Made by a program: the position numbers and the translations under genes. Shown here one piece after another: positions 1 to 63,373 of a stretch of DNA of 64,000 nt. How positions within the stretch are numbered: the first letter of the stretch is position 1; every line of letters begins with the position of its first letter. The DNA is from Daphnia carinata (lineage: Eukaryota), in the NCBI RefSeq assembly GCF_022539665.2, contig NC_081333.1, forward strand, positions 7,068,001-7,132,000, written 5' to 3'. The notes under the pieces are model-generated. The model was not told the DNA's origin and searched no databases. It saw only the letters and a list, made by a program, of their open reading frames with translations.

Positions 1-1114
1 CGTTGCAGAAGAGAAAATGAACATTGCCGAGAAATATCTAATTCCTCAGGCTAGGCGAGATACTGGAGTCAATGACACCCAAGTTACAATCGAATCCGAT
101 GCGCTGCAAACGCTCATCAAATCCTATTGCCGCGAAAGCGGTGTTCGAAACTTGCAGAAGCAAGTGGAAAAGATCTTTCGTAAAGCTGCTTTCAAGCTTG
201 TCAAAGGAGATGCCGAAACCATCACCGTCGGGCAGCAAAATCTTCAGGAATTTGTTGGAAAGCCCATTTTCACACATGATCGTCTATACGACGTGACTCC
301 ACCTGGTAAAAGAAACCAAATATTTTGTTTGCAAATAATTCGGGAAGGATGTTGACAGCTCTCTTCTATAAATCACTACTAACTTTGAATGCTGATAACG
401 TTATTTCTAGGTGTGGTAATGGGCTTAGCCTGGACAGCCATGGGAGGTTCCACGCTGTACATCGAAACTTCGCTGAAGAGACCGTTACGAACTAAACCCT
501 CGAGAAGATTGGAAGAAAAGGAAGAAAAGGAGGAAGGCGCCCAAGGATCTATTGAGCTGACAGGCAATTTAGGCGATGTTATGAAAGAGTCAGTCCGCAT
601 AGCCTATACGGTAGCTAAAATGTTCGCCTCAAAGGTGCGACCCGATGATCGCTTTTTCGCTGACGCTCAAATCCATGTTCATGTTCCCGAGGTATGTTTC
701 ATTTTATTATGCTTACGAATACCCTAATTTTGCTATTCTAATACAATATGTACTCCGCTAAAGGGCGCAACTCCAAAAGACGGACCGAGTGCTGGTTGCA
801 CCATCGTAACAGCACTTCTTTCTTTGGCCATGGACGAGCCCGTTCGCCAAAATGTTGCCATGACCGGAGAAATATCGTTGACTGGAAAAATTTTGCCTGT
901 AGGTGGCATCAAAGAGAAGGTAATCGCTGCAAAACGAGTGGGCGTTGACTGCATTCTATTGCCCGCTGAGAACCGAAAAGATTATGACGATTTGGCCAGC
1001 TTCATCACCCAAGGGTTGGAAGTTCATTTCGTCGACCACTATAGGGACATTTTTCCAATTGTTTTTCCTCACCTAGCCAACCAGGAGCAAGTCCAGTCAG
1101 TTAGTTCTAGTTAA
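1..1114 (+). CDS. LONP1: Lon protease, mitochondrial type, 3' part; exons <1-305, 411-691, 764-1114
   Basis: AAA+ tail [20 protein letters not shown]; protease domain [32 protein letters not shown] (catalytic Ser) and GGIKEK (catalytic Lys). GT-AG introns 306-410 and 692-763 restore the frame. No C-terminal SKL, which argues against peroxisomal LONP2. Confidence 0.95.
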
Positions 1115-1480
1115 ATGTGCCTCTTATTCTTTTTTTGATTGTAGTATCACATCGAGATTTTCATGTTGAAAATACGAATTTCATTTAACAAATGTAAACT
1201 GATACCAACGAATGTTTATTCACATCTTAGGCAAAGGTAATGATACAAGTAGGTAAATGTAACTCTATTCCACTGGTCGAGGTAGACCCCATCCACCACC
1301 CCATAAAAAACCATAAATTAAGAATTTTGTCGTCTTCCAACGCACATAAGCGATATCAAAAGTAGTCCGTATACATTAGTAATATCTGCAGTAAGCGAAT
1401 AAATGTAAACAGGGATAACATTTGAGATTTCCTCTTTAGAACTTGTGTTTAACAAAGATCGTTCGTGGGATGTAATTCGT

Positions 1481-1841
1481 TCAGTATGACAAGCGAGGAC
1501 AACTCGCATAAAGTTCGGTGCAATTGGCTCCTGAACGGCCCATCAGTGTTGCATCCATGTATGAACTGAATCCACCAGTGTGGCGCGTGTGTAATAGATA
1601 GCTCAGAGGCAAACTGCACGAATACGAAAACGAAAACGTATAGTTAAAAGGTAAATAGATTAGTGTCAATACAAGGAATACCTTGATAGCGAAACGGCCC
1701 ATCCGGCTTGCCCTGGTGCAGCCATAGCCAAGCGATTCATTCGGCATAAGGTCTCCTGAGTGCAGACTGTGTTTTCGAGGGCTGCATCCTGCTCCCATAA
1801 TTCGTGAACCATGCTTAACCAAGTCGGACCGTCCAGCAACA
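1481..1841 (-). CDS. Constant module C: exons 1682-1841 and 1481-1613 encoding a DM4/DM12-like cysteine domain
   Basis: Acceptor tcattgcag|TG (phase 1) reads (V)LLDGPTWLSMVHELWEQDAALENTVCTQETLCRMNRLAMAAPGQAGWAVSLS; 68-nt GT-AG intron 1614-1681; then SLPLSYLLHTRHTGGFSSYMDATLMGRSGANCTELYASCPRLSY*. The CxxxxLC...YxxAxxxGxxGxNCxxxYxxCP pattern resembles DM4/DM12 (PF07841) from recall. 54/96 residues identical, ungapped, to C'. Confidence 0.88.
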
Positions 1842-1943
1842 CTGCAATGAATAATCGGGTATGTGATTATTTGTTATAGACAAAAGGGTTTCGCCACACT
1901 TAGCAATTCACTACTAGATAAAGAGAAACCCCTGGAAGATTAC

Positions 1944-2958
1944 CGTCAGAGAGATCGTTATCATCTATGCTGCGCTTAGCTGCCGGTGCAGCAGTAGTGG
2001 TTGATCTTACGTAGAGAAAGAAAGCCAAAAGACCCAAAAGTCCAACCAAAAGAATAGGCAAAAGTTTGTTTTGTTCCTGACAACAACTATCGTATCCGCC
2101 GTATCCTCCTCCGCCGTATCCACCACCTCCACCGTAGCTGCTACCTCCTCCGTAAGAACTTCCTCCGCCATATCCGCCACCGTAGCTGTCTCCCCCACCA
2201 CCCCCGTAACTATCATAACTTCCATCCCTATCATAAGATCCAGATTTCGTACTGCCCCTTTCTATGGAATCCTGATACCCTGGGCTGGATCCGTATACAT
2301 CATTGTAGCGATCCCTATCCCGATAACTTTCGCTTGGATTTGAAGAAGGTGCATGGTATGAATCGGGATCATGGTAACGCTCATTCAGTCGGTTTCGATC
2401 ATCATCGATGTAAGGTTCTTGGCGATTTCTGTCCATGCTATCGTAGTGATCATTGCGGCGACTGAAAGGACGGGTGTCGAACGAACTCGGCCCCCCAATG
2501 GCTCTGGCTGCGGACTCTTCAGGTAACCCCGTCGCATCATAATCCTCAACTGGTTGGCTGGTCGTTCGCAGTCCGAGGACGCGTGGATCGCTCAAAATAC
2601 GCTTGGCCAATTTGCTAACAACTTTGAGAACATCGCCGCTAACACAATCACCGTTCAAGCAATAACCAGAAAATTCGCTACGTGCCACTCTGAAATTTCG
2701 ACTGTTGACTTCTGAGCCAGTACCAATATCTGACATGGCAAGAAAATCGCCACTTTCAGATCGACGTTCTTCAGTTGTTTCATTTTCGGCTGGCGGCCTA
2801 GACGTGGCTGTGTGGCCGTCGGTCATGGCCAGCATTCGAGCTGAAAGCATGACAACAAACAAGGTAGCCACATATCGATTACAACTGCTTCCTTTCCGCG
2901 ATGTTTTCGACGATGTCACTGTCGTTGATCGAGGCATGTCAAACGGACCGGTTTCCAT
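1944..2958 (-). CDS. Variable first exon V1 (joins C via intron 1842-1943; about 435 aa product)
   Basis: Long ORF: hydrophobic signal-like YVATLFVVMLSARMLA, Asp/Arg/Tyr-rich region, GGYGGG repeats, DSCC, LLPILLVGLLGLLAFFLYV, STTTAAPAAKRS. Donor GAC G|gtaatc is phase 1, in frame with C. Start could be ATG 2958 or 2937. Confidence 0.88.
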
Positions 2959-4478
2959 GGACACCAAGAGTGGTCAGGGATTAAGTGAAGTGTATCTACG
3001 CTCAATGTAAACAATAGGTCTATAATAGCTTCAATATATGAACAAGGCCTTGGCTAACAGCCAGAATGGGCTAACTTAATGACAGGACGACTTGATTTAA
3101 TGTCGACTGACCAACGAAGAAGCTCAATGCTAACTGAAGATGCAAGTGACTCCCTGTCATCGAAAGGGAATGCGGTTATGGTAGGAATCAGCGCTACGAG
3201 GAATGGTGGGCAGTCGGAAACTTGAAAAGAATCCGCCTCCTCGATTGTCAAGTAGGCGTTGCTAAACTTTCGTCCACATCAGAGGAGTTCTTACCCTCCG
3301 GTGCAGGTCGACGACCAGAGTGCTTGGCTGGATCTGCATCATCATCCCGATCCTAGCACCGTATGTTTTCATGACAGCATCAGCCGGATCCCGCACGATA
3401 ATTTTACGGTTCATTACATTTTTTTCAAATTCATTCAACAAAAGTGGAAGACCCGTTAGCTCTTATCTTTACCATTCGTTTGGACTACGCCGCTAGTTTC
3501 GTCGCACAAACTTGGCATGATTTACGATCTCAACCAAAAATCGGACGGAGGCGAATGTTAAGTGTTCCCTGTTCTAAGTTCTTGCACCGTGACAGAATAA
3601 TATTACGACGAGAATGGATGCATAAAAAAACATGTAAATAACATGCTGGCAGTTCGCTTTTATGTTTTCTGTCTTTTCTGCAAATAATTTGATATCGACT
3701 GTTTTAAGACCAGCTTTAGGCACAGAATTCCGTTTTTGCCGGAGGAGTTCAACATTCTGGTCGCAACTGAACACACATGACAAAACGTACTTTCATCCGT
3801 GAAATGATGGGACTTCACACGTTTTCTTTCTTCTGATTCACAAATAAGATCCATAGAAATTCGACATGAACAAGAAAGTTATCGCTACAGAAAACCATAT
3901 TCATATATTCTTAGATCATTTATCGTGCTTGTTAAAGAGATGCCACGACTTGTGCTAGCGTGACTCCCAGGATATTTGTTTTGCGTATACAGCTGACGAC
4001 AAGTGAACAAGCTATTTTTTCAATAGAATTAATTCGCTGGAAAATGCTAACAAGTTTCAAGTGGTTGATGGCGCAAAAAATTTTACTACACTTTTTGTTG
4101 TGTGCTAATGAGGTAATCCCCAGAAGGCACTGAACCTGACAGCGCATAAAAATACTCTAGCTTCAAGACCAGACGAAAAAATTTCAAAGAATACCACAAA
4201 AGACCAGCAGTAATACCACAACATACACGACATTGTGGCAGGTAAATGTCTGAATGTGCAGATTTGGTAACCGTGTGGGAAAGTGATTAAACCTAATAGG
4301 ATAAAACAAAACATGAAAGCGTTATTTCTTGCCCCTCTTCACTGCTGTCGTGAATAACGCTAGTAGTCGTTCCATGCCCATTAAATAAGTGTGCGTGATT
4401 GAATAGATTACAAAATAAAATAAAAGTGTCATTCAAATTGGAACGTCCTATAACTTTCGATTTCTAATTGCTTCCTAC

Positions 4479-4944
4479 CTACATCCTGTTCCATGAGAAG
4501 CTGCTCAAGGGAGAGAAGGTCCTTATTATTCGACCGTTTATTACGTGCTGGTGCGGCTGTTGTGGTACTGAGTAGCTGGATCAGGAACAAAAAGAGGAGG
4601 CCGAGTGAAATGATTGAGATTAGCCCCAAATAGTCGTGTCCTTCATCACAGCATGAGTCATAACCGTAACCACCACTGCTTCCGTAGCCTCCCCCATCTC
4701 GTTCCTTTTTCGGAATAGCGCGTGAAGATGAAACCCAATCAGTTGCAAGCAGTTCAGTTGAACGCTTGATCCGTGGATCACTTCGCAGAATGGCCATCAG
4801 TGGTCGGACAAAGGTCAACATGCGCTTCAGGTCATTTTCAGAGTCCAAACTTTCATGGTCGTCGGTAGCAGCCTGATGGCTCAATGATCCCGTCAGAAGC
4901 AAGAAACAGGTGCCAAGTCTTACAATGGCTTTTAATTTGATCAT
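4479..4944 (-). CDS. Variable first exon V2
   Basis: MIKLKAIVRLGTCFLLLTGSLS signal; LKRMLTFVRPLMAILR; GGYGYDSCC; YLGLISIISLGLLFLFLIQLL; STTTAAPARNKRS. Donor GTA G|gtagga, phase 1 (466 nt = 155 codons + 1). Confidence 0.82.
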
Positions 4945-5937
4945 TGTAACAAAAATCACAAGAGGTGGGATCCAAATATTAAAGCCAATAGCTGGGAAAA
5001 TGATCACAAAGCTCGTGGTTGGTGTCTGATGTGAAGGCAACAACTAAATGCAGAAGACTGGACACTAGCGCTGCAGCGTTCAGTTCACTAAAGAATGGAG
5101 AGGAAACGAGATTGGGAACCCCACGGAACGACAACGGTCGATCACTATCAGGAACCGGACGCTTTGCTAACATCCAGCAGCGAAATACGCCAAGAAGGCT
5201 CCTCCTACTCTGTATCATCTTCGCTCCGCCTCTATCGTGATCTGGCTTTCGAAAGTAAGAACATATTTGAATCTTTTTTTTTTACGTCTAAACATCAGGA
5301 GGAGCAATGAACAAAGAATGGGACACATGCTTTTAGTTTGATAAAAAAAAAAATCATAATTCAGTCCGCCTCAAGCCATAATCTATCTATCAAATTTTGA
5401 ACCAACCGCACGTTTTGGAACTGCCTTTCCAAATCGGTTTGAAGGTTATAAAAGCAAAGTAGCCTTATACCATCAATCAAGTTGAGATGATTTAAAACTC
5501 CTATCACGCCAGTTATGCCTACTTACAACATTGTCTTACTCAACATTTTGTATTTACAAAAGTGAACCAAAAACGGGAGGTGTTATAACAAACTTCCGGG
5601 AAAACCGCACGCACTACACACAAGTCTGAAAATTTCGATTTCAATCCTTTCAGTTACAAAAAATAAAAAAAAAATATCGGAAACGTTCGGTCACGGCCCG
5701 TTTAATGGCCAATGGTTCTCACGAGAGCCCACAACTCGTCATGTTCCATTCACCTGCCGTTTAGCAGATACCATTCGCCGGTGAACAGAGAGGACTTGAA
5801 CTACACGCATGAAATATTGTCAGCCACTAACACTTTTTCCTAAACAAGAGGTAACAAACCGTGATATCGAACAAGGTCGATTCTAACTTTAGCAAACAAC
5901 AAGATTGAGAAAAAATGGAAAGGCAAAAAACTATAAC

Positions 5938-6277
5938 CTTTTTCTGCGTCCTGCCCAAAGTTGTCATCCAGTAGAACGGATCGCTTCCGTTTACCATTAG
6001 CTGCTGTGGTGGTAACGGCGGCGAGGAAAAGAACCAAGAAAAGAACTATGTTGATTACAATCAACGGCAATAGTTTAAGGGTTAAACTCAAACTTGAAAC
6101 TTGATCGTCTTGATACTCGTAATCTTGGTAATCCTGGTAATAAGTTTTGTCCAACCAAGAACCAGAACGTAAATCATCTCCATTTTCGTAGAAAACGTCT
6201 CTCACTAGCTCTACGTTTTGAGCAATCAACAAGATGACGAAGAACACCGACACAAACGCCAACGATGCCTTGTCCAT
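5938..6277 (-). CDS. Variable first exon V3 (divergent; lacks GGYG-CC)
   Basis: MDKASLAFVSVFFVILLIA signal; YQDYQDYEYQD; LLPLIVINIVLFLVLFLAAV; TTTAANGKRKRS. Donor AAA G|gttata is phase 1 but weaker than the others. Confidence 0.72.
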
Positions 6278-7730
6278 TTTGAAAAGAAAAATTGTTTTCA
6301 AATTCACAAACCAGCAAAAACCATTTTGCAAAGCCAACAAATGTAGAATATAATTTTTCTAGACTATCGAGAGGATAACGATTAAAAACAACAAGCCGAC
6401 TAGACTGCCACTTCGATACTGCCAACTAATAACCAAATGAAAGTTTCGCAGCAGTAATCGGTTATAGAGATTGCTACAAGAATCAGACATAGCACCTGGG
6501 AATTGATAATGGAAAACCTGAAATCTCTGGAAACCAGTCGCACAAGAAAAAACATTACCAATAATAACGGGTTGTCACCACAAGCGTGAGTGTTTTCCCT
6601 ATATCTGTGAGTTCTTCGCACTCGTTTGCCGTTTTCCCGCTCCTTGAGATAGGGATCCATATTTATTGTGGGTTTTAATTCTGTGGCCTTTTTTTATTTG
6701 TTTTATTTTAGGCTCTAATAATTTTAGGCTAAAACAATAAAGAATGTCCTTTATACTGAAATGCAAGGGAATTTTCGTTTGTGCTGTACCGATAACAAGA
6801 AACAGAAGCGCTGTAGTTGGGTACTGACAGTATTTGCGAATTAGAACATTTTTACTATTTTAAAGGAGATGGATGACTTTCTCTAAATGGTTTTTCTAGA
6901 AAAATTATTGATTACCAAAAATTAAACACTTAAAAATGAACTGTTAATTCGTTTAGTCAAAGGCACAAGAATCACACTAAGCGATATCTAGATTTTGTGT
7001 GTGTGTGTGGCGAGACGTTACGCAAATAGTTAACACTACAAAATAAAAATCCAAATCCTGGCACAGGGGGAAGCGTTCTAGTGACTGAACAACGTCAGCT
7101 CTATGGTTGGTTGCCGCCGAGATAAAATGTCATTTTACGGTGCGTTGCTTTTTATGAGTTTCCTTTCTGTTACGATTTTATTTTGAAATTTTCTCTTAAT
7201 CTGCCAGGTTGCGCAAAAATAACTTCCCCGAAAACGCAAACATCGTAGAGAAGTAAAAAATGTGAAGAAGAATAACGCGGAAAGTACGACCGCCTCTCCT
7301 TTGTAACGCTGTGTTTACGTTTAACATTTATGACATAGAAAGTGGCAACGGTCGGCGATTTTATAGCGGCATATTAGGTAACTTGGTAATAGTATACGAA
7401 CAAAAAAGATGTCATCGCAAGCAGCTCAATAAATCGCTTTGCTTAATAACCGAAAAATAACTAAAGCTTTTCATAATTTATGATTGCTTCATCTATTATG
7501 GCACTACCATGCAAAGAATAGCAAATGAAGTTCCCAATCGCTCTTAAGTATAGCCTACCACAGAGAAACGTCTAGTTTTGTAGTTGGATGGCAATATTGG
7601 CCAATCTGTTGAAAGAAAAAACCGGTTTTTTCTATATTCTAATTTAATCAACCGACTGTAACTGGCAATATGGGAAGTCCGCACGCAACTGCATTTCTTA
7701 GCCTACTCTAAATAATTGTTGACAGCATGT

Positions 7731-7753
7731 CTTATTATTATTATTATTATTAT
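7731..7753. repeat. (TTA)n microsatellite
   Basis: About 7 TTA/TAT units. Confidence 0.85.
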
Positions 7754-7940
7754 TTTTCTAATTCATTAACACGTCGCCGGCTGCAAAACGTTACACGTCC
7801 ATCCTTCATAGCTCCTTTGACAGCTCAGCCATGGGGGATGCCTTTAAGATTCACAATCGCGAAGGAACAATTTTCTGAAACTAGTTGGCAGCTCGTCACA
7901 GCGATATGCATAAAAGCTTAATTCCCCTTTGTTATCTTAC

Positions 7941-8454
7941 CACTGAATTGACTAGATGGATTGCCGATCCAGTTGTCGTCGACAGTCGAATCACTGACTG
8001 TTTCAGGAGAATACCTTTTACGACGTCCACCGCCACCACCACCGCCACCGCCATTGCCATTATTTCCATTGTTAGCACTTGTCGTTGTCGCAATGTACGA
8101 GAAAAATAGCAAATAGAGCAACGCGGATGACAGCAAGGACAGCAAACCCAAAATGTCAAAATTATTTCCACAACATCCTCCTCCACCGTAGCCTCCACCG
8201 TAGCCTCCCCCATAGCCACCGTTCCGACTAATGGGTTGACCAGCTTCACTCTCACGGCGTCGTAAAATAGACATGAATGGCCTCGTTTGCCTTAAAATAA
8301 CTTCAAGTTCACGTTCAGAGTCTAAACGGTCACTGGGCTCTCGATAATTTCGCCATCTGTGATCTCCGGAGGCTTCACTCCAGGTTGAACGACGGAGCTG
8401 AGCCAGTAACAAAGTGAGAACCAGCGGCAACCTCATATAAGTGGGTCTAACCAT
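7941..8454 (-). CDS. Variable first exon V4
   Basis: MVRPTYMRLPLVLTLLLAQL signal; ELEVILRQTRPFMSILRR; GGYGGGYGGGYGGGGCC; ILGLLSLLSSALLYLLFFSYIA; TTTSA..GGGGRRKRYS. Donor AGT G|gtaaga, phase 1. Confidence 0.83.
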
Positions 8455-9116
8455 TTGTAACGCCGACAGCAAATGCAACTCACGGAAGAATATTTGAGTA
8501 TCGAACTAAATTTGATAAGGAAATTCGTCGAGGCCGACGAAGAGCAAACTCTAACACGAAGCCAATGGAGTACCGAACTGAACTGCAATGCTGGGACAAG
8601 ACTAGTTCATTATTAACTGCTGAGATGGGCAAGATCGTGATATGGGAATTCAAAGAAAACCGCTTGTCCAGTTGCTTGACTAATCCACAAATAGAGCTAT
8701 GCCTGGTTTGTGTAAATATGACTCGTCAACATGCGACAAAACAAGTGTGATGTAATAGCGGAGTGCCAGGTGTTTTCGACCAGGTTAAACCGCATATCTC
8801 ACGTTCCCAAAAACCTGGCGTGCAAGAGAGTTGCAAATCAAGTGAAATTTGTCGCTTGTCGCACGACAAATAAGGATTTAAAAAATGAAGTGATTTAGTG
8901 GTTAACTGCAACAGGTGGTTAGTTAACCATCTATACATTATAGCTGTTACGCGAGCTTGCATAGAGTAAGAATGGGTGCCTTCGTGCGGTACCAGAATCA
9001 AAATAAAGAAACATTTCAGCAGATGCGCTTTACAATACAACTGAAACTCTTGTATGGCACCAGGTGTGTGTCAACCATTACAAGTTTCCCATTGATAAAT
9101 TACAACGTCACCTTAC

Positions 9117-9687
9117 CAATATTTTCATCATCCGTCAAGATCCAGTTGCCTTCGTCTTCGTTTTCCTCAGCGGAGCGTTTCTTGAACCGAACAGCCGGTG
9201 CTGCTGTCGTCGTGCTGGCAATGACGATCAGGTAAAGCAAAAGACCAGCCAGACCAAGAAGAGCTAACAGAGGGAGAAGATCGTCCTTTTGCTGGCAGCA
9301 GTACCCTCCGCCACCACCATAGCCATTGCGATCGAAACTATCACGATCGAAGCTATTTCGGTCGTAATCGAAGTCGTTGTAAGATAAATCGTAGTATTTG
9401 CGTTTGTTTTTACGAACTGAACGAGCCGAAAACTCGTCGGAGCTTGTTGGATTTCTTCTTAAGATTGCCATCAAGGGAGCGACGTAATTCAACATCCGTT
9501 TCAGTTGTCCTTCCGATTCCAGCTCATCGTCAATGTTCGTTTCAACTTCCGCACTGTTGATACCGTTTTTGCCTTCCGGTTGATGTTCAGTCTCGGCTGC
9601 GTCAACCACACTATTTTGCGAGCCCGTATGAGAAATGATGACCAGAGAACACAACAGGCCAGCCAAAAAAATTACAAATTTCTTCAT
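9117..9687 (-). CDS. Variable first exon V5
   Basis: MKKFVIFLAGLLCSLVIIS signal; QLKRMLNYVAPLMAILRR; GYGGGGGYCC; KDDLLPLLALLGLAGLLLYLIVIA; STTTAAPAVRFKKRS. Donor ATT G|gtaagg, phase 1. Confidence 0.87.
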
Positions 9688-9781
9688 TTTCGTGTTTCAG
9701 AGAAAACCGCAACTTCTAAACGTTTGTTTTGTTTTTGCCTGGTCCTGCAAGAGGAATTTACGCAATAGTTACTTCTACTTG

Positions 9782-9787
9782 AACTGA
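9782..9787 (-). promoter_or_regulatory. Arthropod initiator-like TCAGTT upstream of V5 (similar hexamers precede the other V exons)
   Basis: Plus-strand aactga at 3132, 8576, 9782, 10780, 16631 and 19772; aactaa (TTAGTT) at 5042 and 6424. All lie within about 20-180 nt upstream of a V start codon. Short motif, so chance matches are possible. Confidence 0.4.
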
Positions 9788-10260
9788 TGTTGTATTGACG
9801 AGAGAGAACCGACGTTGCAATCGTCCAGCTACGGAATGAAGACCAACACATTTTTCTGCCATGGCCAGCTTTGCAGATACACTAGACAATTACCGACAAG
9901 CCCCGTAACGGGTTTTCTTCTCGTCTACAGCGGTATCCACTGAACGACTCCGCCTCTCTCTATGGCTTGTGCCCGCTCTTGTCCCTATCAGGATGTGAGT
10001 GTCGAATGTAGGAAGCGATTTCGTTGTTGCGTGTTTCAAATCTTCAGTCATTGTACAACAGAAACCGTATCATCATACGTACTAACGTTGCAACATTCGT
10101 AACACAAAACAAAGAAATAGAAACACCTGTCAGGAGGCGAAATTCACGCTCCGAAGACAACATGCCTGACGATTTATTTCGAGAGCTATTGGCGATGATG
10201 AATCAAGGGAAGGAAAAAGAGACTTTGGACTGATGAATAACTCGTCCAAAACTGACTTAC

Positions 10261-10762
10261 TTTGTTCCTCTTCTTCTGATGTGGCGACCATGCGACGACG
10301 GCGACCGCTGGTTACTGTCGCGTTGAGCAGGAATAGAAGCAAATAGGAGACAGCCACCAGGACGAATCCGGGAACGACGGTGTGAAAGTCTAGTTTGTCG
10401 CAGCATCCTTCATAACCACCTGATGAGCTTTCTCCTCCGTACGAAGACCGAGTATAGCTGCTAATCATCGATCTTAGGTTTTGCATGCGCAGCCTGAAAT
10501 CCTCTCCCATCCGGCTGATTTGATCCATGCCGTACGATGATGGTCGCTGAGGTCTAGGACCGTACGGTCTGTCGTATTTTTTATTGAAAACGTTCTCGTT
10601 GTATTGGTCAAATTCGTCCAGCTCGCGTTCTTGAGGATCTGAAGATTCGTAGTAGCGCTGGGATGGATATTGTAGATCCATTTGGCCGTGGATCACGATG
10701 ACAACAACCGTCAATAACCACCAGAAGAGGATTAGGCTTCGAGGGCCAGTGTTGAATTTCAT
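10261..10762 (-). CDS. Variable first exon V6
   Basis: MKFNTGPRSLILFWWLLTVVVIVIHG signal; FRLRMQNLRSMI; GGYEGCC; VVPGFVLVAVSYLLLFLL; NATVTSGRRRR. Donor CAA A|gtaagt, phase 1, perfect consensus. Confidence 0.83.
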
Positions 10763-13700
10763 TTTTGGTGAAAACGTCAAACTGAATTCGTGCTTTTGTC
10801 GAATTTCTGAAATTAATTTAAATAACAACTAACAGTTGCTACGCTTAAAGAAGGTTGATGGTAAAACAATGTGATGTTCTGTCAAAGTAAATACGAATGG
10901 GAATGAAACTGTCGAGTCAAATGGTTGCGGGAGAGCGCGTATTTCAGTGCACAGTGGCTCGGTTGGGGAAAGACTGCCGGTATATTCCCATCATTCAGTC
11001 TTGGCCTGCACAGACGCCATCCGCGTATTTCGTTCAGACCTCTAGCAAGCTAGAGCAAGTCTTTTCAAAAATATGTTTTTCTCCCGCTTCAAACATCGCT
11101 TGTGGATAGCAGATACGTGAACGTCTTCTCTCCCGCTATTTTCTGTTCTCGCTCCGAATTGGTGGACATGGCAGTTGTTAATTCCATGCATCGGAGAGGC
11201 GATTTCCGATTTGCCGTCCGTAACCTTTCCCTTCAAATAAAAATGCGGAGCCAAAGGGAGACCTAGAGCGTTGGCGGTGTTATCGTATAACGGGTCCGTA
11301 ACGGGATGCGAGAAGTTGGCGTTTTGATTGCGTCACTCGGCAGAAGGAACTCAAGCAAATCCCAATTTGTTAAACATTTTATGACTTCAGAAGTTTCGTC
11401 GTTCTTTCACCGAAATAAAAGGAAGAAGCGTTAACGATATGTGAAATGACTGGAGTATGTCAGACTGGATGCTATTTAGTTGCCGATGGCGACTGACACG
11501 AACATACAATTACCTTCACAATAATTATACATCTAGTTTCGATTGCTCGAATACCATTTCTTATTCCAAGGTAGGACGGCTAAATAATTTCCTGTTGTCC
11601 CGCACATCTACTATTGTTGGGCTACAAGTGAGACGATCATCCCATTCTTACACCACATAGAACATTATATGTGTAGGGTTTTTTTCTCATCTGTTGAAGA
11701 ACACCGTGGTTGATATAGACCGTTAGTTACCATCAGTAAAACCTAAGAAGGATCTACCGAAGCGAATAACCACAGGTTTTTTTTTTTGAAAGGTTACGCT
11801 TCAGTTTGGATCTTTTTGAAAAGGAATGCTTGAGGGGTAATGCAGCGGGAGATCACGCGCGTTGCACCTGTCGTCCGTTGACGATTTATAAGGAGTCACG
11901 CTGCCTTTGCTTTATTTAAAAGAACGTTTTAAAATTTCGAATCTTCGTCGGCCGAAGCCAACAAGTATCAGTATAGAAGACGGTACTGTAATAGTGTTTC
12001 TCGCCCTTTCTATCCAATCCATTCCTTTGTTTTGATTCTGTGCCTCTTATAGCTAGAGCCATAGAATTCAAGAGAAAAGGAAAATGTTTTTATCAAGTTA
12101 CGATGCGCGATTATGGTGTGCGGTTTGGCTAACGGCTCTTTCCATTATATCAGTGTGTGGCCTGCATACAAATCTCAATTAGTTAAGTTATTTGTGTTTC
12201 ATTTTTGTTTGTATGCAGCTTAACCTAGAACTATTTTATTATCAAATTTCGAGAATATTAATGTCTTGCTGCCATCTTAAGGAATGTCATGAAAATGGAC
12301 GTTTCGAATCTTGCATCCTTCGCAATACAACCGATCGAAATCATTTGCGAAACGTTACACGATTACTACCAAATTTTCATATTAATAGAATTACTATTTT
12401 TTGTCCGTTTTGTGAAATGTGTTAGTCGATTTTTTAAACTTACATTGAAAACATACTCACGCCGTGGAAAGCTATATCGTGTAATTCATTCTATTTGTAG
12501 CCAGTGTAAGTATAGCTTTTCCTTTGAAATCATTTTTACGTATTGCACATGTTTTTCCCATCCCGGGAAGGTAGCACTGACTTAAGTATAACTAATAGGG
12601 AAACCCTACTGGCGTGAGACAGAACAGCTAGAAAAAGGCAATTGGTCGTCATCTCCCCGGGCAAATGGGAAGTTCATCCTTGATGTTTGAGTGTTCCAAG
12701 CTAAAGTGAAAAGCGTCGAATTTCAGGGCATTGACTCCCTGAATTCTTTATGGCCTGGAATCTTCTATATGCGAGCCTGAACGCTGAAAACATCGAGTGA
12801 ATTGTGTAGTTAAAACGCTGACTAATGCATATTTCAGAGAATGGACTGAAATTTTCAAAATGTGCGTCAGTATAACAAGTAATAACGATGACCGGTGCAA
12901 CATGTGCAACAAGGTCCTGAATAGACGAACACGCATAGTGGCTGAAATCGTGCGGATAACGGTTAACAACATTTCTGACTTTTCTTTTTAGCATCGAAAT
13001 TTAAAAAGTTTTGCATCCCGTCTAGTATAACGTCAGAATTCGTGGTGAGAAAAAGAAAGGGTTACAGGCCAGTAGTCTAAAGAAAGAGCACGCATTGGGG
13101 AATCCCGTTTCAGGCCTTCTTCGTCGACGAGTATGCCGACAGTTATGGATGATTTATATCTTTTAACACTGACAGTATAGGACGCCAATATAATTGATGT
13201 TATTATGCCCGCTGCAATGCGTCTATACGTCACGCTTCCGTTAGCTCAAAACACGTCGGACAATCTGAAACGTGTTGAACGGATGGGTGGATATACTGTC
13301 ATTCGGAATTAGCAGGGGGAAAATGAAAAAGCAGGATTGCAATGGAAGAGCAAGAGGGAAGAAAATAGGGCCGTCAACCTAACACCTGTCGGTGTTTTTT
13401 GCTCGTCTTTACATACGGCACGAATAATACATTTCTTTTTTCACGATTAGGTAAAGTAATTCAGAGATGTGTAATTTTGATAAAATAGAAACGGTCCGCT
13501 GTCAGTGCTTTGTTTTTTACTTTCTTTTGGCTGAATATAAAAAAAAAACATTACAGCAGTCTCGGTTGTAAAACACGTTTTGACGAGTGCTAGCGGTAAT
13601 AATTGAGAATTCATAGTTGATTGAACAATGACATGCCAACATAGTCTAAATATGTACCAGATCTATCATAATAAAATCTTGTGCGTCATTGATCAAGCGT

Positions 13701-14948
13701 TGCATGCACGTTTATGTGAAGTGATAGAATATACTGAATACATCTCAATGCTAATGGTGTGCGGCTGTTTCGCTCAATTAATCTTTATTTGGCCCTCTGT
13801 TATAAAGTGAATATAGTCTACAATGAGAATACAGACAAAAAAATACCATTGGGCTTTTCTTCTTTTAAAGGCAGGTGATTGGGATTGTGGCAGCCGTTCC
13901 GCTGTATAATTGGTGGCCGTTGGTGGTTCATTTTACATTTATGCTAGGAAACCGAATATAATTTAACTTCTCTTACAGTTATTTTTTTTTTGTAGTGCTT
14001 TGATCGTTTGACAAATATCAAGAAAGATAGACGTTTGACGTGGATGCCATCAGAGATCGTTATGCAAGGAAAAGGATTTATGCAGTCTACCGTAAAAAGA
14101 ACATTACAGTCTATAATTTAAAACTGTTACATCGAGGTTGTTGGTGATTATTTTCTCTAATTATTGTACAGTTACAATAAGCGCAGTCTCCAGTCAAAGG
14201 CCAACAATAAGACTTGTATGTTATTAGTAGAATTCTAAAATGTCTGTATGTACGCAAATATCTCTTTATATTAAATTAAGGAAATCTCAGCAAAGCCGAA
14301 AAAGCTGTTCATGAAAATTTGAATTCAATAAAGGTATCTGACAAAATAATACTACTCGAAAAATTAAAAAAAAATTTGTTCTATTTCTGCAAATCGTATT
14401 TGTTCGCTAGAAGTATAGAACTGGAAAATGCCAGTCCTTACGAAAAAGGACCAAGAACTTATAGTCCTTACAGAAAAGTTCTTAGTCATTGTAGAGATAG
14501 CACTAATTCTCTCATCGTTCGGTTTCACCGTCAGTCTTCTATATGATCAAGCATGATCCAGCAAAGGAAGTATAAAGGAAATGGAAACAAAATATTGCTT
14601 TATTTATGTTGCCTTGATGGACAATATATTTGTCAATTATTGGAAAACATTTCCCGTTTACATAATCCCTTTGTAACACGCTGCTAATACATAAAATATA
14701 TCCCTTTCCCCTAATGCAACGATAAACATTGACACAACATATTCATTTAACAAAACAATTAACAAATACGGCATACAAATGCCCGATCAAGGAGGTGACA
14801 GCTACAGTCACGATAACGGATAACATCTGGGTTTTGATGAAAGAAATGTTGGTCGGCCAAACTTATTAACAGTATAGGCATACATGTATCAAGCATATCA
14901 TATATCCTGCTATCAGGTAGCATGTGATCAATTTGAACCGTGTGCATA

Positions 14949-15238
14949 TTAATTAAGATGCGGACAGTTATTGAAGACCGCCGTACAATTTTCGCCGAAC
15001 CGGCCTTTCAAAGATGCGTCCAAGTAATTCAGGAAGCCGCTCTGATGTCGGTGGTGGAGCAGATAGCTAAGTGGTACACTGGACAACGAGACAGCGAGGC
15101 CCGTTGAACCCGGTGAATCTAGAGCCAGACGGTTCATCCGGCAAAGGGCTTTCAGAACACAAGCGTCACTGGATTCATCTTCGTCAGCGTTCCATAGTTC
15201 ATTTACCATAGATATCCAGGTAGGTGCATCCATCAGTT
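14949..15238 (-). CDS. Constant module C': single exon, DM4/DM12-like cysteine domain
   Basis: Acceptor ctcttttgcag|AA (phase 1) reads (E)LMDAPTWISMVNELWNADEDESSDACVLKALCRMNRLALDSPGSTGLAVSLSSVPLSYLLHHRHQSGFLNYLDASLKGRFGENCTAVFNNCPHLN*. Paralog of C. Minus-strand AATAAA at 14599-14604. Confidence 0.9.
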
Positions 15239-15777: not shown

Positions 15778-16471
15778 CTATATCAGACCAACTATTTTCG
15801 TCCGTAATGACATCGTTGTAGCTTGGGTCGTCGATCGATCGAGTCTGGGGTCGTCTCACGCGAACTGCTGGAGCCGCAGTAGTGGTTGTTGCAATAGCGA
15901 TCAAATAAAGTAAAAGAAGTGATAAAGCTGTGAGAGCAAGGATCGGAAGCAAATCGTCCTTCTTGTCGCAGCACCCGTAGCTACCACCTCCGCCATAACT
16001 GGAACCTGACGAATACTCTCCGTAACCACTGCGGTCCGGTTGTATTTGTTGAATAGACTTGTACATAGGAGGTCGCCGGCCTGAACCTCGCTTCCGACCT
16101 TCCTCCACCAGCCCACCAAATAAAGATGTACCCAAATCTTCTGCTTCATAATCAAGCTTCATCTTCGTGGATCGCTTATTCAGCCCATTTGTTCCTCGTA
16201 TATTCTTATTTTGTTGAAAAATCGCCATCAGAGGTGTGACATATTTAAGCATTCTCTTTAATGCTAACTCAGATTCGAGTTCTTCTTCCACTTCTTCCAT
16301 GTCGTTCCCAGCTAAATCATTGTAAGAATTAGAGGCCATGTTATACTCAGGTGGTAAGGAATGTTTGGCTGCATCCATACTGGATGGATTCAACGAATGT
16401 TCGGCCGCTTGCCCGGCGATGAAAATCAGCAGTAAACTGCAGGCAGTGTGGACGGCAATGAACTTATTCAT
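15778..16471 (-). CDS. Variable first exon V7 (joins C' via intron 15239-15777; about 327 aa)
   Basis: MNKFIAVHTACSLLLIFIAGQAA signal; ALKRMLKYVTPLMAIF; GGGGSYGCC; KDDLLPILALTALSLLLLYLIAIA; TTTTAAPAVRVRRPQTRS. Donor ATA G|gtacat, phase 1. Confidence 0.88.
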
Positions 16472-19382: not shown

Positions 19383-19638
19383 CTGACGACGTAGATGGCT
19401 TAGACGAGTCAGATTGAAGAACATTGATTGCTCGTTTCTTTCTGCCGCTGCTTACGGTAGCTGCTAGAAGTAAATAAGCCAGGAGTGCAGTTACCAGCAA
19501 AAGTAATGCGATAAGAACAATATCAGAGTCATCCAATCCACAGCATTCGCCTCCGTAATCAGATCGTTCAGGCTGAGCCATTTGAAAGTTCGCCCATAAT
19601 GCGCTGTATCTAGCACGAAAACTATCCCACAAATTCAT
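19383..19638 (-). CDS. Variable exon V8 (no evident signal peptide; 5' end uncertain)
   Basis: MNLWDSFRARYSALWANF..DYGGECC; IVLIALLLLVTALLAYLLLA; ATVSSGRKKRA. Donor TCA G|gtaact, phase 1. An in-frame TAA lies 5 codons upstream of the ATG, and a possible acceptor (tattag|AC) ends at 19641. Confidence 0.72.
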
Positions 19639-20865
19639 GTCTAATATGACTTAGTTGATACAAGTTTTACGAACGATATGGATGGCACTAAGCGTTGTAG
19701 ATGTAGAACCAGAAGATGCAAAAATTGGAAAAAGCACAAAGCACTTCCTTATACAAGGCCTTTTGCTGACTAACTGAAAAGCACGTTACAAAGTTGCGCT
19801 TGTGTGTCTCGTGACGCGCAATCGGTAGAAACGGTGGGCAGCATTGCAACATAGACATTAGGAATCGCCGCCCTTAATATACGTCTACAAGGGTCTGTTT
19901 GCTATTTCTGTTCTTGCTTTATGTAATTGCTTCCGTTTCATTTTTGCTGGACTGCGTCGAGGTAATATTATGTCCGTGAATGTTTATTACATTAGTTTGA
20001 GCAATCCAACGAAAAGAGAAATATACACATATGCTATACTTCCTTCGTAGCTTTGGCGTAGCACGTCGCTATTTTGGGAAGAAGAAAAAGCTATAAAAGA
20101 TTATTTTAAATCATTAAAATGTAGCATTGCAATTTTACACAGTTGTTTCAAGCATTCTAAATTGAAGGCACGGCGGTTGAGAGGCAAACACGATGAAAAA
20201 CAGGAAGTCACAAGGAGCCAAAGCACCGCGCAGCATTTAGTTACCGTAGGTACTCTACTATAATTTTCTCTAATATTATAAACATTTACACAGAGATGTT
20301 ATCAGGTAAAATATAAGCTTTGGTTACGCAACCAAGTAAAAACGCAGTACTTTTAGTTTTAAAGAAATCGGAAGCTATTATATCAATTAAATGTTCACAT
20401 AAAAAACGAGCCTGTGCCCAATATGTAAGCTACACGCATCTAAGTTGGAAAGATCTGATGATGGACACTTTACAACTATTTAGAAATTAAAATCCTAATG
20501 ATGTTCACGAAGTTCCTGATCAATGAAAAGTTCAGTTCAATTAGAACAGCGTGCAGTGCCATGAGTAGTGCAAGGAATCAAGAAGACAATGTAATAAAGA
20601 CATTAGATTGCGACAATGTAAAGAAGAAGCATAACTTCCCAACCTTTTAGAAATTCTTTTTTCGCATCGCTTACATCATATTATTATCTATATTATCATC
20701 TCACCTAAACAGAATCCCTATCGGGAAATTCAGTATATTTAAGAACCAGCTGGTTTGACGAGAAAACGAATAATTTTTCTAAAATAAGTGTTTAATTAAG
20801 AGTATAATGTGTAACTTTTATAGAATTCCAAGTAGTATACCTTTATCGTCAAAATTTTGAGCTCA

Positions 20866-22508
20866 AAAATAAGCCCGACAAAATAAGCCCGACTTTTCCG
20901 CCAATTTTGTATTTTTCCAGCATCTTCAGTTTAGCAATGAACAGGTGTGCTTTAGATTCGAAATCAATGAGAATAACAAAAATGGGCCTGTTTATTTTGT
21001 CGGTTCTTAGTTTATTTTGAAAATGGCTGGTTTAGCGAGAAAACCACTAACATAATCGAATTCAGCGTTCAATTTTGACTATACCACGTGATTTTTATCG
21101 AATTCCGAGAGATGTCGTTTTTTGCCGATTTTGACAAAAGTGGGAAGGCTATAGCCTTCTCACTTTTTCATTTTTGGCCAAATTTCAAATTTGGCTTAAA
21201 GTACATGATTTCGATAGAGAATTGAACGCTGATTACGGAAATCAAGTTTGTTTTTCGATTGACCTTATAGTTTTTGAATTATACCAAAAAAACAAAAAAA
21301 TCGCTAGCATTGTGTAAAATGTTTGGCACATTTTTTAGTTTATTTTGAAGATGGATGGTTTAACGAGAAAAGCAGTAACATAATCGAACTCAGCGTTCAA
21401 TTTTGACTATGCCACGTGATTTTTATCGAATTCCGAGAGATGTCGTTTTTTGCCGATTTTGACAAAAGTGGGAAGGCTATAGCCTTCTCACTTTTTCATT
21501 TTTGGCCAAATTTCAAATTTGGCTTAAAGTACATGATTTCGATAAAGAATTGAATGCTGATCACGGAAATCAAGTTTGTTTTTCGATTGACCTTATAGTT
21601 TTTGAACTATACCAAAAAAACAAAAAAATCGCTAGCATTGTGTAAAATGTTTGGCACATTTTTTTAGTTTATTTTGAAGATGGATGGTTTAACGAGAAAA
21701 GCATTAATCGACCATTCAATTTTGACCATGCCACGTGATTTTTATCGAATTCCGAGAGATGTCGTTTTTTGCCGATTTTGACAAAAAATGGGAAGTGGGG
21801 GGTTTCTGGTATTCCCAAAGTGTTCTATAGCCTGGGGGAAAATTAATCACGCAGAATAATCGAACGTACACTGATTGCACGTTATGTTCAACTTATTTTA
21901 GAATGCCCAGTGGGATATTTTTTCATCAAATTGTTGGACTTGAAAATAAGCCCGACAAAATAAGCCTGACAAACTATGGCCGACTTTTCTACAAATTTTT
22001 TATTTTTCCCAAATGGTACAATTTAGCAATGAACAAATGTAGTTTTGATTGAAAATCAATGAAAATCCCGCAATTTGACTTCCTATTTTCATGAAATCAG
22101 AAATTTATGAAAAAAAGAAAAATCCAAAGTGCTGGCGTGCCAGCACGGTACAGCGCTGTCGTGCTACAGCACAATAGAGCACATGAATTACATTTCATTG
22201 TAGAATTTATCCCGACGTCATGCGGAAGCATCATATGGACACTTGTATAACAATAATAGAAAATTATTTCATATGGCGTGTGACATTTTTACTTTTTTTC
22301 TCACCAGTGTTGTTATGAACACTTACAATTCAATTAATTATGTCTCCTTACTCTTATGGAAATTGAATGAAAGACTATTACCTTTCTATGCAGATGCCTT
22401 AGCCTTTATCTGTAATACAAGATCATGGGCATTTATGTTTTGGTCTTCTCTTTCACCGAAAAATGTCGTTCGCAACAAAAGTCGGGCTTGTTTTTGTTTG
22501 TCGGGCTT
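20866..22508. mobile_element. Putative non-autonomous MITE/foldback-like element with AAGCCCGAC subterminal motifs and an internal tandem array
   Basis: aaaataagcccgac motifs at about 20866-20895; an approximately 110-120 bp diverged direct copy at 21943-22066; an inverted copy (aaaagtcgggctt...gtcgggctt) at about 22478-22508. AT-rich, no transposase ORF. True termini and TSD not resolved. Confidence 0.55.
21008..21795. repeat. Tandem repeat, about 328 bp unit, about 2.4 copies, each unit internally palindromic
   Basis: Anchor ccacgtgatttttatcgaattccgagagatgtcg recurs at 21084, 21412 and 21731 (spacing 328 and 319); copies are near-identical. Confidence 0.92.
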
Positions 22509-23649: not shown

Positions 23650-26600
23650 TCACGGGCGTAAGGAGCGCATCAGAATAGTAAGGACGCCGGCCAAAGCGGT
23701 GGCCTTACCCATAAGACGGCCCATGCTCGGGTCACTAACACCCTGTCCGGACGCTTCGGCGGCTGCCTTGAGCGTGTGTAGAAAGGCTCGGGCTACGTCA
23801 CGGACTTTTGGAGGCAAATCGCGGTTTTGCTCCCGTTGGGACACATCCTCGACGGCCAAACCCATGCGCTCGACGAGTACGACGCACTGGGACAGACAAA
23901 CGGCCATCGTCTGAGGTGAATCGGTAACACTCTTGACAAACATTTTCGAAGCGGTGACAAACTGACGCGATTCGTTAATTAATCTATCCCGGGCTGCTTC
24001 CATCTGACTCAAGTCTTCTTCTCCCTGCAAATGAACTTGTTCGGCCTTAGCTACCGGAGGAACGGCTAGCCGTGAAATGACGCGACTGACTGCCTGTTCC
24101 GACTGACTGATGAGGGTAGTGAGGTCGAAATCTGTGCTGCCATCCAAAGAGTCTTGTTCAAAGCTTCCCGAATCCAGTGATCCATTATCTCTCTCCGGTA
24201 ACACGGCACCACTATTTCCCGATTTGCGGTGGTTTGGGCTGCTATTCGTCCACGTTGGTAAATCCTGACCAGGCGTGCCTTTCCCCTCTACTCGAATGTT
24301 CAAACTAATGACATTGTTTCCAATACTAGCATTAGTCCGCGCTCCCAGCTTCGGGCTACTGGTGCTTAATGGAGCTCCCGGTTGGCTCACGCGGCTGCTA
24401 TCAGATGGAGGTGGAGGTGCCATCGTTGTTCTTGTTACACGCGATACAACGGGAACCTGATATTCCGAATGTTTGGCTGGACTTTCATTTAACGGCTTCA
24501 TGACACCGGGTACTGCGTAATGACTGGGACTTGAAGGACTTGGTGTCGATTTGATCGGGGGCGGAGGTGGCGCTGCTGCTTTGGTTACCGTCGTACGGGT
24601 CCCGGATGGGCCGTTAGTGCTGGTCGTCGCCATCTGGACCGAAGGTGGTGTTGGTTTCTGTGGACTGGTTACCGAGCTTGTCACCGGAGGCTTGCGAAGA
24701 CGGGATGGCAAAGCAGGGGGTCTTTGACTTGGTAAAACATTTGCCGTAGTGGGTGTGGATCTTGAATCTACGCTGGGACGAGCCACTCGATTAACGATTG
24801 CGCTTTTTGTTGTTGATTCCTGAGGAATGATAAAGAGGCGTAAGAGATAAAGTATGGTAAAAATAAAAACGAAAACAAATGACTTACGATTTGGGGGGTG
24901 ACAGGCAGCTTTGGAATCACTACTCGCGTTGGGCTGTTACGTGGAGGCAATGGAGGTGTGCTGTCTGATTCCTTTATTGATGTAACTGAAATTCCAGTAA
25001 TAAAATTGCTTGGGGCATTTTTGACGGTCGCCACGCTGGCGTTGGAACCGATAGAATCACTGCTGGACGCCATGCTCAACTTGGAAGGCGACGAAGTGCC
25101 ACTTTGTCCGTTCTTGTGCACGGTTGAGATGCTTTCCGTAGACGCTGACATGCCCTTGACTCCAGCAACGCCGCTGGAGCCCATTTCTTCCATCCGTAAG
25201 CGATGAGTATCGCTCATCCGGCCGGATGAGGGTGTCTTTACGGAAATACGTCCCAATAGGTCACCCTATATTTTACATTGGTATTCCAGTGTTAGTGAGT
25301 GAATTTTACTCATCCATTTTTGTATTTAATAAATACCTGAGACGAAGATTTTGTCAAGAGGCCCGGAGGCGGAACAGTTGCGCTTTCGGATCCTTTTCCG
25401 GGCGTCGAAAGGCGAGCATTGGCAGCTGCAGCGGCGGCTATAATCATTCTTGGAATGGGATTTCTTGGTGGCGGCGGTGGGGGAGGGATGGTTTCGTCGT
25501 CTTCGTCATCATCGTCGATAAAAGTAGACCTGAAATTGGGTCCGTAACCTGGTGCTTTAAGAGCACCGTTCAACGGATTAAGCGCGGGCATTTTGAAATT
25601 GGTGAATCCATTCTTTCGCGGACTGAACTGGCCTGCTGGCTGACGGGCAGGTAATTCAGGTGGTGGGTTACTAGAGCAGTCAGCAATTGACTTGAGTGAT
25701 CCGTAACCGGACGAGTGGCTAGAAGCCGGACTAAGGTCTGGCGTTGTGCCTTTGGTAGACGCAACATTCGAACTTGCCGTTGTCACAGTTACGGTTTCCG
25801 TAACGGCTGTTGTGTTATTTGAGGATGTCAGTAAACGTTGCATCTCTCCTATTTTCGGCGAGACTCCATGGTTAGGCTCTCGCTGTTCGAAGCGCACTTT
25901 CATTTCCACCATGACTCGATCTTTTTCGTCAAAGTTCTTTGCGCTTTGCTGGACGCTGTTTACACCGGAAGGAGGCTCTTCTCTCATTACCTGGAAAATG
26001 CCTTCACGTGCAGCGTAGAGCTTCTGCAATATGACGAGTCCATTATTAGACGAATTGCTGGCATTCGCCGGCGGTGGTGGAATGATGTACGCAGATAAGT
26101 CGTCGTTGCTGAAATCACCCGATCCAGCTTGAGACGAAGATTTGGTGCCGCCAACTGGAGGTAAAGGTACGGCTACCGTAGATAGGAACTTGTCCAAATC
26201 AGGATTGGCTGTCAAATGTTTTCGCTTCTCGTCTGCTATCCATCGCCTCTTGCTCTCCGTCAACGTCTGGACTGACAAGCTAGACGTGGATCCAGCACGG
26301 ACTGAGCTGGCTAGCGAACTAACCGAGCGAGTGCTGACGCCGCTCAGTGAAAATTTGTCTTCCGAGTCATGGAAGTCTCTCTCCTGGCTGCTGTTGAGAC
26401 ACGATGAATCAGAGACGACATCAGCCCATTGAGCCAAATCCGTCAAATCTTGTAATTCTCCAAGATCGGATGGTGAAGGACGGCCACGAGCAGCTGCAGA
26501 CGGCGTCGATTTCATGGCGGCCAGCTCGTTCTCCAGCGAATCGCGATCGGCGAAAGGTGTCGGTGGTTCGTTGATAGTAGCTGGGAACTTCATTTTCAGT

Positions 26601-63300: not shown

Positions 63301-63373
63301 CCGCCGCCGTCGTCGGCGCATCTTCGGTTGCCGGGCCGGCCCCGATTTGGCCGTACCACGGATTTAGAAACAT
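23650..63373 (-). CDS. FERM and PDZ domain-containing scaffold (FRMPD4/Preso-like): WW-WW-PDZ-FERM, long disordered region, C-terminal helical bundle; about 1984 aa. Exons 63048-63373, 31848-31988, 31495-31638, 31241-31409, 31028-31141, 30709-30957, 30488-30607, 30290-30426, 29909-30128, 29754-29834, 28155-28259, 27962-28091, 27711-27871, 25337-27646, 24888-25265, 23650-24819
   Basis: All introns are GT-AG and phase-consistent (5955 nt in total). WW1 [32 protein letters not shown]2 [91 protein letters not shown]...[10 protein letters not shown]. An upstream non-coding exon is implied by the acceptor ending at 63457. Confidence 0.92.
44066..44106. repeat. (TG)n microsatellite
   Basis: About 20 uninterrupted TG units. 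Confidence 0.95.
46362..46441 (-). CDS. Candidate alternative first coding exon of the FRMPD gene: [26 protein letters not shown](S)
   Basis: ATG at 46441 in gagATGG context; MGxxxS myristoylation consensus; RRKRSK basic cluster. Donor AG|gtaacg is phase 2, matching the acceptor at 31988. Confidence 0.62.
58821..58860. repeat. (GA)n microsatellite
   Basis: 20 GA units; related GA tracts near 48237-48258 and 59925-59990. Confidence 0.95.
60291..60326. repeat. (TG)n microsatellite
   Basis: TG run with a single CG interruption. Confidence 0.9.

Follow-up and report, generated by a model that had tools for sequence, protein, structure and literature searches.

How might six short reading frames, each with its own start codon and each running into a stop soon after a 5' splice site, be put to use where a single set of exons able to complete them lies downstream? 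The question is posed by a locus of Daphnia carinata (assembly GCF_022539665.2, contig NC_081333.1) within a stretch of 64,000 nucleotides, positions 7,068,001 to 7,132,000, which we call the window and number from its first letter. Here six variable exons (V1 to V6) lie on the minus strand ahead of a constant region (C, consisting of exons C1 and C2). We think that all six V exons share C and that each has a separate start (probability about 0.78); that at least three of them share C is very highly probable.

An array of first exons and its constant region

The initial annotation had placed six paralogous first exons in tandem, each with an ATG and a phase-1 GT donor. The array is real: positions, start codons and donors were all confirmed, on the minus strand. 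Every exon is 3n+1 nucleotides long, and a GT follows immediately after its last base. In the lines below, the start codon begins at the higher coordinate of each V exon and the last exon base, before the slash, lies at the lower one; also given are the number of codons after which unspliced read-through of the donor meets a stop, and the length of the predicted V+C precursor.

1944..2958, minus strand: V1, proximal first coding exon, 338 codons + 1 nt; donor G/GTAATC; 102-nt intron to C1; stop after 14 codons; precursor 435 residues
4479..4944, minus strand: V2, alternative first coding exon, 155 codons + 1 nt; donor G/GTAGGA; stop after 16 codons; precursor 252 residues
5938..6277, minus strand: V3, divergent alternative first exon, 113 codons + 1 nt, lacking Cys-Cys; weak donor G/GTTATA; stop after 32 codons; precursor 210 residues
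7941..8454, minus strand: V4, alternative first coding exon, 171 codons + 1 nt, weak signal segment; donor G/GTAAGA; stop after 7 codons; precursor 268 residues
9117..9687, minus strand: V5, alternative first coding exon, 190 codons + 1 nt; donor G/GTAAGG; stop after 5 codons; precursor 287 residues
10261..10762, minus strand: V6, alternative first coding exon, 167 codons + 1 nt; phase-1 donor A/GTAAGT; stop after 43 codons; precursor 264 residues
1682..1841, minus strand: C1, first constant exon, phase-1 acceptor; splice sites kept in metagenome loci L001-L004 (3' end missing in L004)
1481..1613, minus strand: C2, second constant exon with the stop codon; C1+C2 encode a 97-residue four-Cys DM4/DM12-like domain, junction codon included

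The stops soon after the donors thus bear out what had been claimed of these frames. The V exons share an order of parts: an N-terminal hydrophobic segment, low-complexity sequence with a Gly/Tyr run leading to a Cys-Cys pair (missing from V3 and present in the others), a helix, a Thr-rich stalk and a basic cluster. A strongly hydrophobic segment of 19 residues lies upstream of the basic site in each. V1 has a long Gly/Tyr-rich tract, and V2 resembles V5 (E 5e-7). The signal peptide once ascribed to every exon fared unevenly when judged by hydropathy alone: V3, V5 and V6 have a clear N-terminal segment and V2 a modest one, in V1 it does not come until residues 29-46, and V4 stays below threshold. 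The outer parts of V2, V4, V5 and V7 (an exon of the second cassette described below) have in common a predicted helix, ESE..LKRML.[YF]V.PLM.I[LF], followed by a basic site; it is the sole folded-looking element in the variable region.

C had been described as one exon beginning at 1841. The acceptor at that position (CAG/TG) stands and restores the frame for all six V exons, but the region comprises two exons, 1841-1682 and 1613-1481, separated by a 68-nt intron (1681-1614); the unspliced frame from 1841 hits a stop after 58 codons. The V1, C1 and C2 splice sites are conserved at four of five metagenome loci, the fifth having been discarded as a false match. A sensitive tblastn search of the window with the C peptide and with that of its paralogue C' returned only 1839-1484 and 15236-14952; among the matches listed, the best within 1944-14948 had E 1.0 and the best elsewhere E 0.20, which upholds the statement that no C motif lies between the V exons. 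Between V6 and C1 there are 23 strong acceptor-like sites, none of which leads into a C-like frame. By both approaches, V1 to V6 have one constant-exon set in common and no V exon is followed by a private copy of C.

Evidence for joining of variable to constant exons

The evidence for splicing comes from proteins and gene models of related species. For V5 it is a protein found in Logan assemblies only (P0092; two contigs, the longest 2314 nt), which reads V5, C1, C2, has the predicted length of 287 residues and the junction at the predicted residue, and is 90.5% identical over the V5 orthologue part and 98.9% over C1+C2. A contig that lacks both introns is most simply explained as spliced RNA, a processed copy being the alternative. 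V6 is joined to C in the RefSeq X2 isoforms of D. pulex (XP_046441977.1, LOC124192619) and D. pulicaria (XP_046642049.1, LOC124327165), in which the Met at the junction is the one that the window's bases predict. In the JGI set, a V6-like protein (P0005) and a V1-like protein (P0006) carry an identical C tail from which the C1/C2 intron is gone, and V1-like fronts with C are also found in Artemia (P0009 and XP_065566896.1). V4 meets C at the same residue in one gene model of D. magna, KZS07943.1. Of the six isoforms that had been proposed to share C, three (V1, V5 and V6) thus appear joined to it in relatives and V4 by a gene model.

Homologues that read through the donor also bear on the boundary. 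Among 55 V5-type and 51 V6-type best hits, excluding rows that contain C or do not reach the end, unspliced V5-type proteins have GK at the boundary in 45 of 46 rows and V6-type proteins have SK in 44 of 47; the rows include many near-duplicates, and the distinct contexts number 22 and 26, respectively. Identity before the boundary is 68% (V5-type) and 53% (V6-type), and after it 17 of 59 and 23 of 192 positions are identical. These are the residues that a GTAA donor would dictate, which supports the joins indirectly. In V3, orthologues are 80-89% identical, with a Gly kept at or beside the boundary and divergence beyond it.

Three observations weigh against a common use of C by six separately started exons. 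No product joining V2 or V3 to C was found in the proteins of relatives among the matches listed, which also included no orthologue of V2. On a crude score of U1 match, the V2, V3 and V4 donors do no better than other GTs and the V5 donor comes second; because this strength is not discriminating, the donor calls rest on conservation and on the joined proteins. Finally, no 7-, 8- or 10-mer is shared over background in the 450 nt upstream of the eight first exons (V7 and V8 included), a simple test that a degenerate upstream element would escape.

The first two of these would fit an array that is partly in use, in which V1, V5, V6 and perhaps V4 join C and V2 and V3 are decaying or make stand-alone read-through membrane peptides, comparable to single-exon protocadherin-beta. 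The weak donor of V3 and its want of Cys-Cys point the same way, as do a phase-1 GT at 4545 that scores as well as the V2 donor and the RefSeq model XP_045024173.1, an unspliced V5-like protein. We nevertheless find such an array improbable. The frames of V2 and V3 are intact, V3 is conserved up to its donor and divergent afterwards, and no AATAAA occurs within 700 nt past the V2 donor, V3 being followed by an ATTAAA only; moreover, the matches listed are a lower bound, and unspliced forms prevail even in the V5 clusters despite the recorded join, with one joined protein among the 13 members of three clusters.

Several deposited models instead chain V exons into one long mRNA for a multi-pass protein: KZS07943.1 (V6-V5-V4-C), KAK4003039.1 (V5-V4), EFX76994.1 and CAH0098190.1 (V6-V5) and KAK2704371.1 of Artemia. 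Chaining had been named as an outcome that would overturn a shared C. It is very improbable: these models conflict with one another on the manner of joining, no in-frame phase-1 acceptor with at least 9 of 13 pyrimidines leads into V3, V4 or V6 in the window, and direct products of V5 and V6 with C are on record. The expectation that gene finders would mangle the locus is confirmed by KZS07943.1, KAK4003038-40, EFX76994.1 and CAH0098190.1, among which the exons are variously chained or cut short.

As to starts, the sequence TCAGTY, which we take to be the arthropod initiator, occurs within 200 nt upstream of six of the eight start codons, the frequency in random windows being 12% (P 7e-5); it is missing upstream of V2 and V3. 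A 3' splice site is another possible reading of this sequence, and a plausible one for V1 and V8. The motif could also serve a different arrangement, with a single upstream promoter and a non-coding leader, the V exons being mutually exclusive internal exons as in Dscam1 or receiving a trans-spliced leader. Pyrimidine runs with AG upstream of the ATG of V1, V2, V3 and V5, the failure to find a conserved promoter element and a 39-residue N-terminal extension in D. pulex X2 would suit this arrangement, to which we give a slim chance. Against it, every V has its own ATG and an N-terminal hydrophobic segment, no acceptor pattern was found upstream of V4 and V6, whose TCAGTY sites lack a pyrimidine run, and the 8.4 kb from V6 to C, with spacers of 1-2 kb, leave space for separate promoters. 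A promoter for each V is likely, by analogy with the known systems considered below.

Overall, the locus would be one gene with six start exons, each probably transcribed from its own promoter and spliced to the same C1+C2. A transcript begun at a given V would use that exon's donor, the V exons downstream being removed as intron, and the outcome would be six precursors with differing fronts and an identical four-Cys tail with a predicted fold like that of serum amyloid A (SAA).

The constant domain and the possible fate of the precursors

C has the architecture of DM4/DM12 (PF07841), a four-Cys C-terminal domain of about 90-115 residues, and C27, C33, C85 and C92 are invariant or nearly so across 16 aligned rows. 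On profile search the proposed membership received a split answer: C' passes at 28.2 bits against a cut-off of 22, whereas C, at 19.8 bits (E 0.0013), is below threshold. PF07841 is matched by 15 of the 16 aligned members, and C belongs to a long-branch, branchiopod-type subfamily. Two other identities were ruled out. PF07898 (DUF1676) is not matched and the AQXLAY motif is missing from the alignment, which excludes Osiris, and no cadherin, UDPGT or immunoglobulin (Ig) Pfam match was found in the exons or the joined proteins, which excludes homology to protocadherins, UGT or Dscam.

Structure prediction suggests that the domain folds like SAA, as a four-helix cone with a short fifth helix, the form of the SAW clade of the Lipocone superfamily; the predicted structure matches SAA end to end at 12-19% identity. 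The end of helix 4 reads small-x-x-x-G-R, with A75 and G79 invariant, R80 common and the Asn missing at 76, in our own reading of the register of the sNxxGR motif. The C-family alignment contains no conserved columns for the His (H2), Glu (H3) or Asp (H4) that form the active site of active Lipocone members; inactive members such as Wnt still belong to the superfamily (excerpts of PMC12419801). At the sequence level, PF00277 was matched by one of 16 members (E 0.031, residues 5-87 against 7-91 of 102), and profile searches of the PDB did not have SAA among the matches listed. A limited search of literature listings turned up nothing published about the locus or about a link between DM4/DM12 and SAA, and DM4/DM12 does not figure in the excerpts of the Lipocone paper (PMC12419801).

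Where C ends up is a separate matter. A furin-type motif lies past the helix in 33 of 45 V sequences (five of the eight in the window), with Ser or Asp after it in 14 of the 33; a further motif of this type precedes Cys-Cys in 10 of 45, with Ser next at eight of the ten sites. An N-glycosylation-type sequon is present in 16 of 17 distinct C tails. The sequon, the four Cys and the furin-type motif together suggest that C is lumenal and shed. The charges tell against this: in most of the 45 sequences the helix has acidic residues before it and basic ones after, as expected of a type I protein with cytosolic C. Type I membrane isoforms, with C as a shared cytosolic tail in a true analogue of protocadherins and the basic cluster as a stop-transfer signal rather than a furin site, would be compatible with the same gene structure. 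In their favour are the signal peptide and single 19-residue helix obeying the positive-inside rule, and planthopper Osiris17/24, which has DM4_12 near the C-terminus and a transmembrane region (excerpts of PMC12825958). The four conserved Cys, the sequon, the Ser or Asp after the basic motif, the Thr-rich stalk after the helix and the fold match to a secreted protein all speak against them, and we consider such isoforms doubtful. Secretion with release of an SAA-like carrier is favoured over a cytosolic tail, if tentatively, its chances being somewhat short of even.

On this tentative scheme, the secretory pathway would take up the precursor, and furin-type cleavage at the basic cluster past the helix would free C. 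The freed C might then act as a non-enzymatic carrier of lipid or other hydrophobic ligands, probably in handling lipids of the cuticle or elsewhere outside the cell. Which V is used would determine the time and place of production and the accompanying Cys-Cys hydrophobic peptide. A cuticle role is suggested by the Gly/Tyr runs and by DM4_12 in Osiris17/24. A bolder proposal makes DM4/DM12 a catalytically dead arthropod branch of the SAA/Wnt (Lipocone) group and the locus a branchiopod promoter-choice cassette older than the Artemia-Daphnia split, in which C, a lipid-pocket domain freed by furin, carries lipids or Cys-Cys peptides to the cuticle surface and V is the choice of cargo, not of a recognition code; taken whole, we regard this as unlikely.

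Duplicates, neighbours and comparison with known systems

A second cassette, V8-V7-C', spans 19638-14949 on the minus strand, upstream of the array.

14949..15238, minus strand: C', single-exon paralogous constant region, 57% identical to C
15778..16471, minus strand: V7, first exon joined to C'; XP_057364430.1 of D. carinata matches V7+C' at 100% identity, and spliced forms found in Logan only also occur
19383..19638, minus strand: V8, V6-related exon without a signal peptide; phase-1 donor G/GTAACT
1215..1220, minus strand: AATAAA, candidate poly(A) signal 261 nt past the C stop, called from the letters alone

V8, whose phase-1 donor is strong, is a probable second front end for C' or C, and no product joining it to C' was found in the searches; D. 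magna and D. sinensis models fuse V8 to V7. By frame, splicing of V7 or V8 to C at 1841 would also be possible. In its order the cassette parallels V6-V5-C, of which it seems to be an old partial duplicate. In trees built on a conserved core of 54 residues, and so on few columns, V8 falls in the V6 group (95/84 and 96/94 in two trees), V7 is placed among V5-like rows, and V1 clusters with sequences from JGI, ENA and Artemia (86/91 in one tree, 100/98 in another). A grouping of the three Artemia cores, defined after the first tree, was rejected (p-AU 0.018). The V1 versus V5/V7 split thus appears to predate the separation of Artemia and Daphnia, which is several hundred million years old, and the array is probably old because the V1 type is common to Artemia. 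V1-like and V5/V7-like fronts of Artemia carry an identical C; two near-identical RefSeq genes there point to a duplicated cassette, so that the identical tails may come from more than one C.

Elsewhere in Daphnia, KAI9561773.1 of D. sinensis has a V6-like part at 50% and a C at 90% identity, and XP_045024173.1 of D. magna is V5-like at 48%, in a model without C. The locus tags of the V6-, V5- and C-like paralogues (P0004, P0054, P0074, P0075, P0078 and P0109; about 50%, 48% and 90% against the window) place them far off but on the same chromosome in D. sinensis and D. magna, where they probably represent a third copy of the array. In another species, P0165 combines a ribosomal L24-like N-terminus with a C-like tail identical to that of P0164; the likely cause is a gene model that reads through into a shared constant exon.

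The array is bordered on one side by a Lon protease gene (plus strand, 3' end at window 1-1114), which meets C tail to tail, and on the other by a long PDZ-containing gene. With about 100 nt separating the Lon stop from the candidate poly(A) signal of C, the two 3' ends may overlap. Further on, 21007-21795 holds 2.4 copies of a 328-bp unit (94% identity), each copy with a 32-nt near-palindrome (21136-21167 and 21464-21495). Direct repeats at 20842-20974 and 21919-22066, spaced by about 1.08 kb, flank it; the whole looks like a non-autonomous mobile element or satellite. The long gene (minus strand, 23650-31456 and 63044-63373) has a PDZ domain, a weak VBS-like C-terminal match and, about 32 kb upstream, a weak WW match, a domain order that presumably recalls FRMPD4/Preso.

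The layout of the array is not new, and its novelty had been overstated: it is known from protocadherins, UGT1A, chelicerate short Dscam (sDscam) and, in insects, Gr39a, and RefSeq already models part of this locus. Like UGT1A, GCNT2 and protocadherin alpha and gamma, the array has tandem first exons in one phase, putative signal peptides, a probable single splice from each to shared exons and duplicated cassettes (excerpts of PMC1885805). It differs from them in having no sequence homology, in fitting six exons into about 9 kb where they have a dozen or more, in the lack of any conserved promoter motif that the k-mer test could find, and in its variable parts, which are low-complexity stalks with a hydrophobic helix in place of folded recognition domains. 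Drosophila Gr39a, Gr28b and Gr23a likewise splice large exons with their own start and donor to small constant exons holding the first acceptor (excerpts of PMC2204066); these encode chemoreceptors, and the Gr39a duplications postdate the Drosophila-Anopheles split (same source), whereas the V1 versus V5/V7 split appears older than that of Artemia and Daphnia. The sDscam genes likewise have 5' variable cassettes with alternative promoters, which are likely in the array too, 3' constant exons and neighbouring clusters, and in mites the cassettes reach another cluster's constant exons, as V7 and V8 could in principle reach C (excerpts of PMC9258826); the Daphnia array has no Ig domains, nor is there evidence here of homophilic binding or trans-splicing. 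The four conserved Cys, and C' above the cut-off, tie the constant region to PF07841, including planthopper Osiris17/24 (excerpts of PMC12825958), from which the absence of DUF1676 separates it. With the SAA group it shares the predicted cone, fifth helix and structural match and, on our reading, small-x-x-x-G-R (excerpts of PMC12419801), but the Asn of sNxxGR is replaced, the triad is not evident, four Cys and the sequon are added, and C is the tail of a larger precursor. The protocadherin analogy may mislead on function, because the constant part resembles a secreted SAA-type domain and not a cytosolic signalling tail.

The locus is thus a well-supported new case of a known layout, with a new structural clue and no new principle. 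To the loci at which alternative first exons decide the isoform it adds a crustacean case, old and compact, in a tractable model animal, and the conflicting Daphnia annotations of the locus are explained by it. The predicted SAA-like pocket would tie DM4/DM12, an arthropod family with no assigned function, to the question of lipid, retinol or hydrophobic-peptide binding and, if the SAA link is true, arthropods would hold an SAA-type family masked by sequence divergence.

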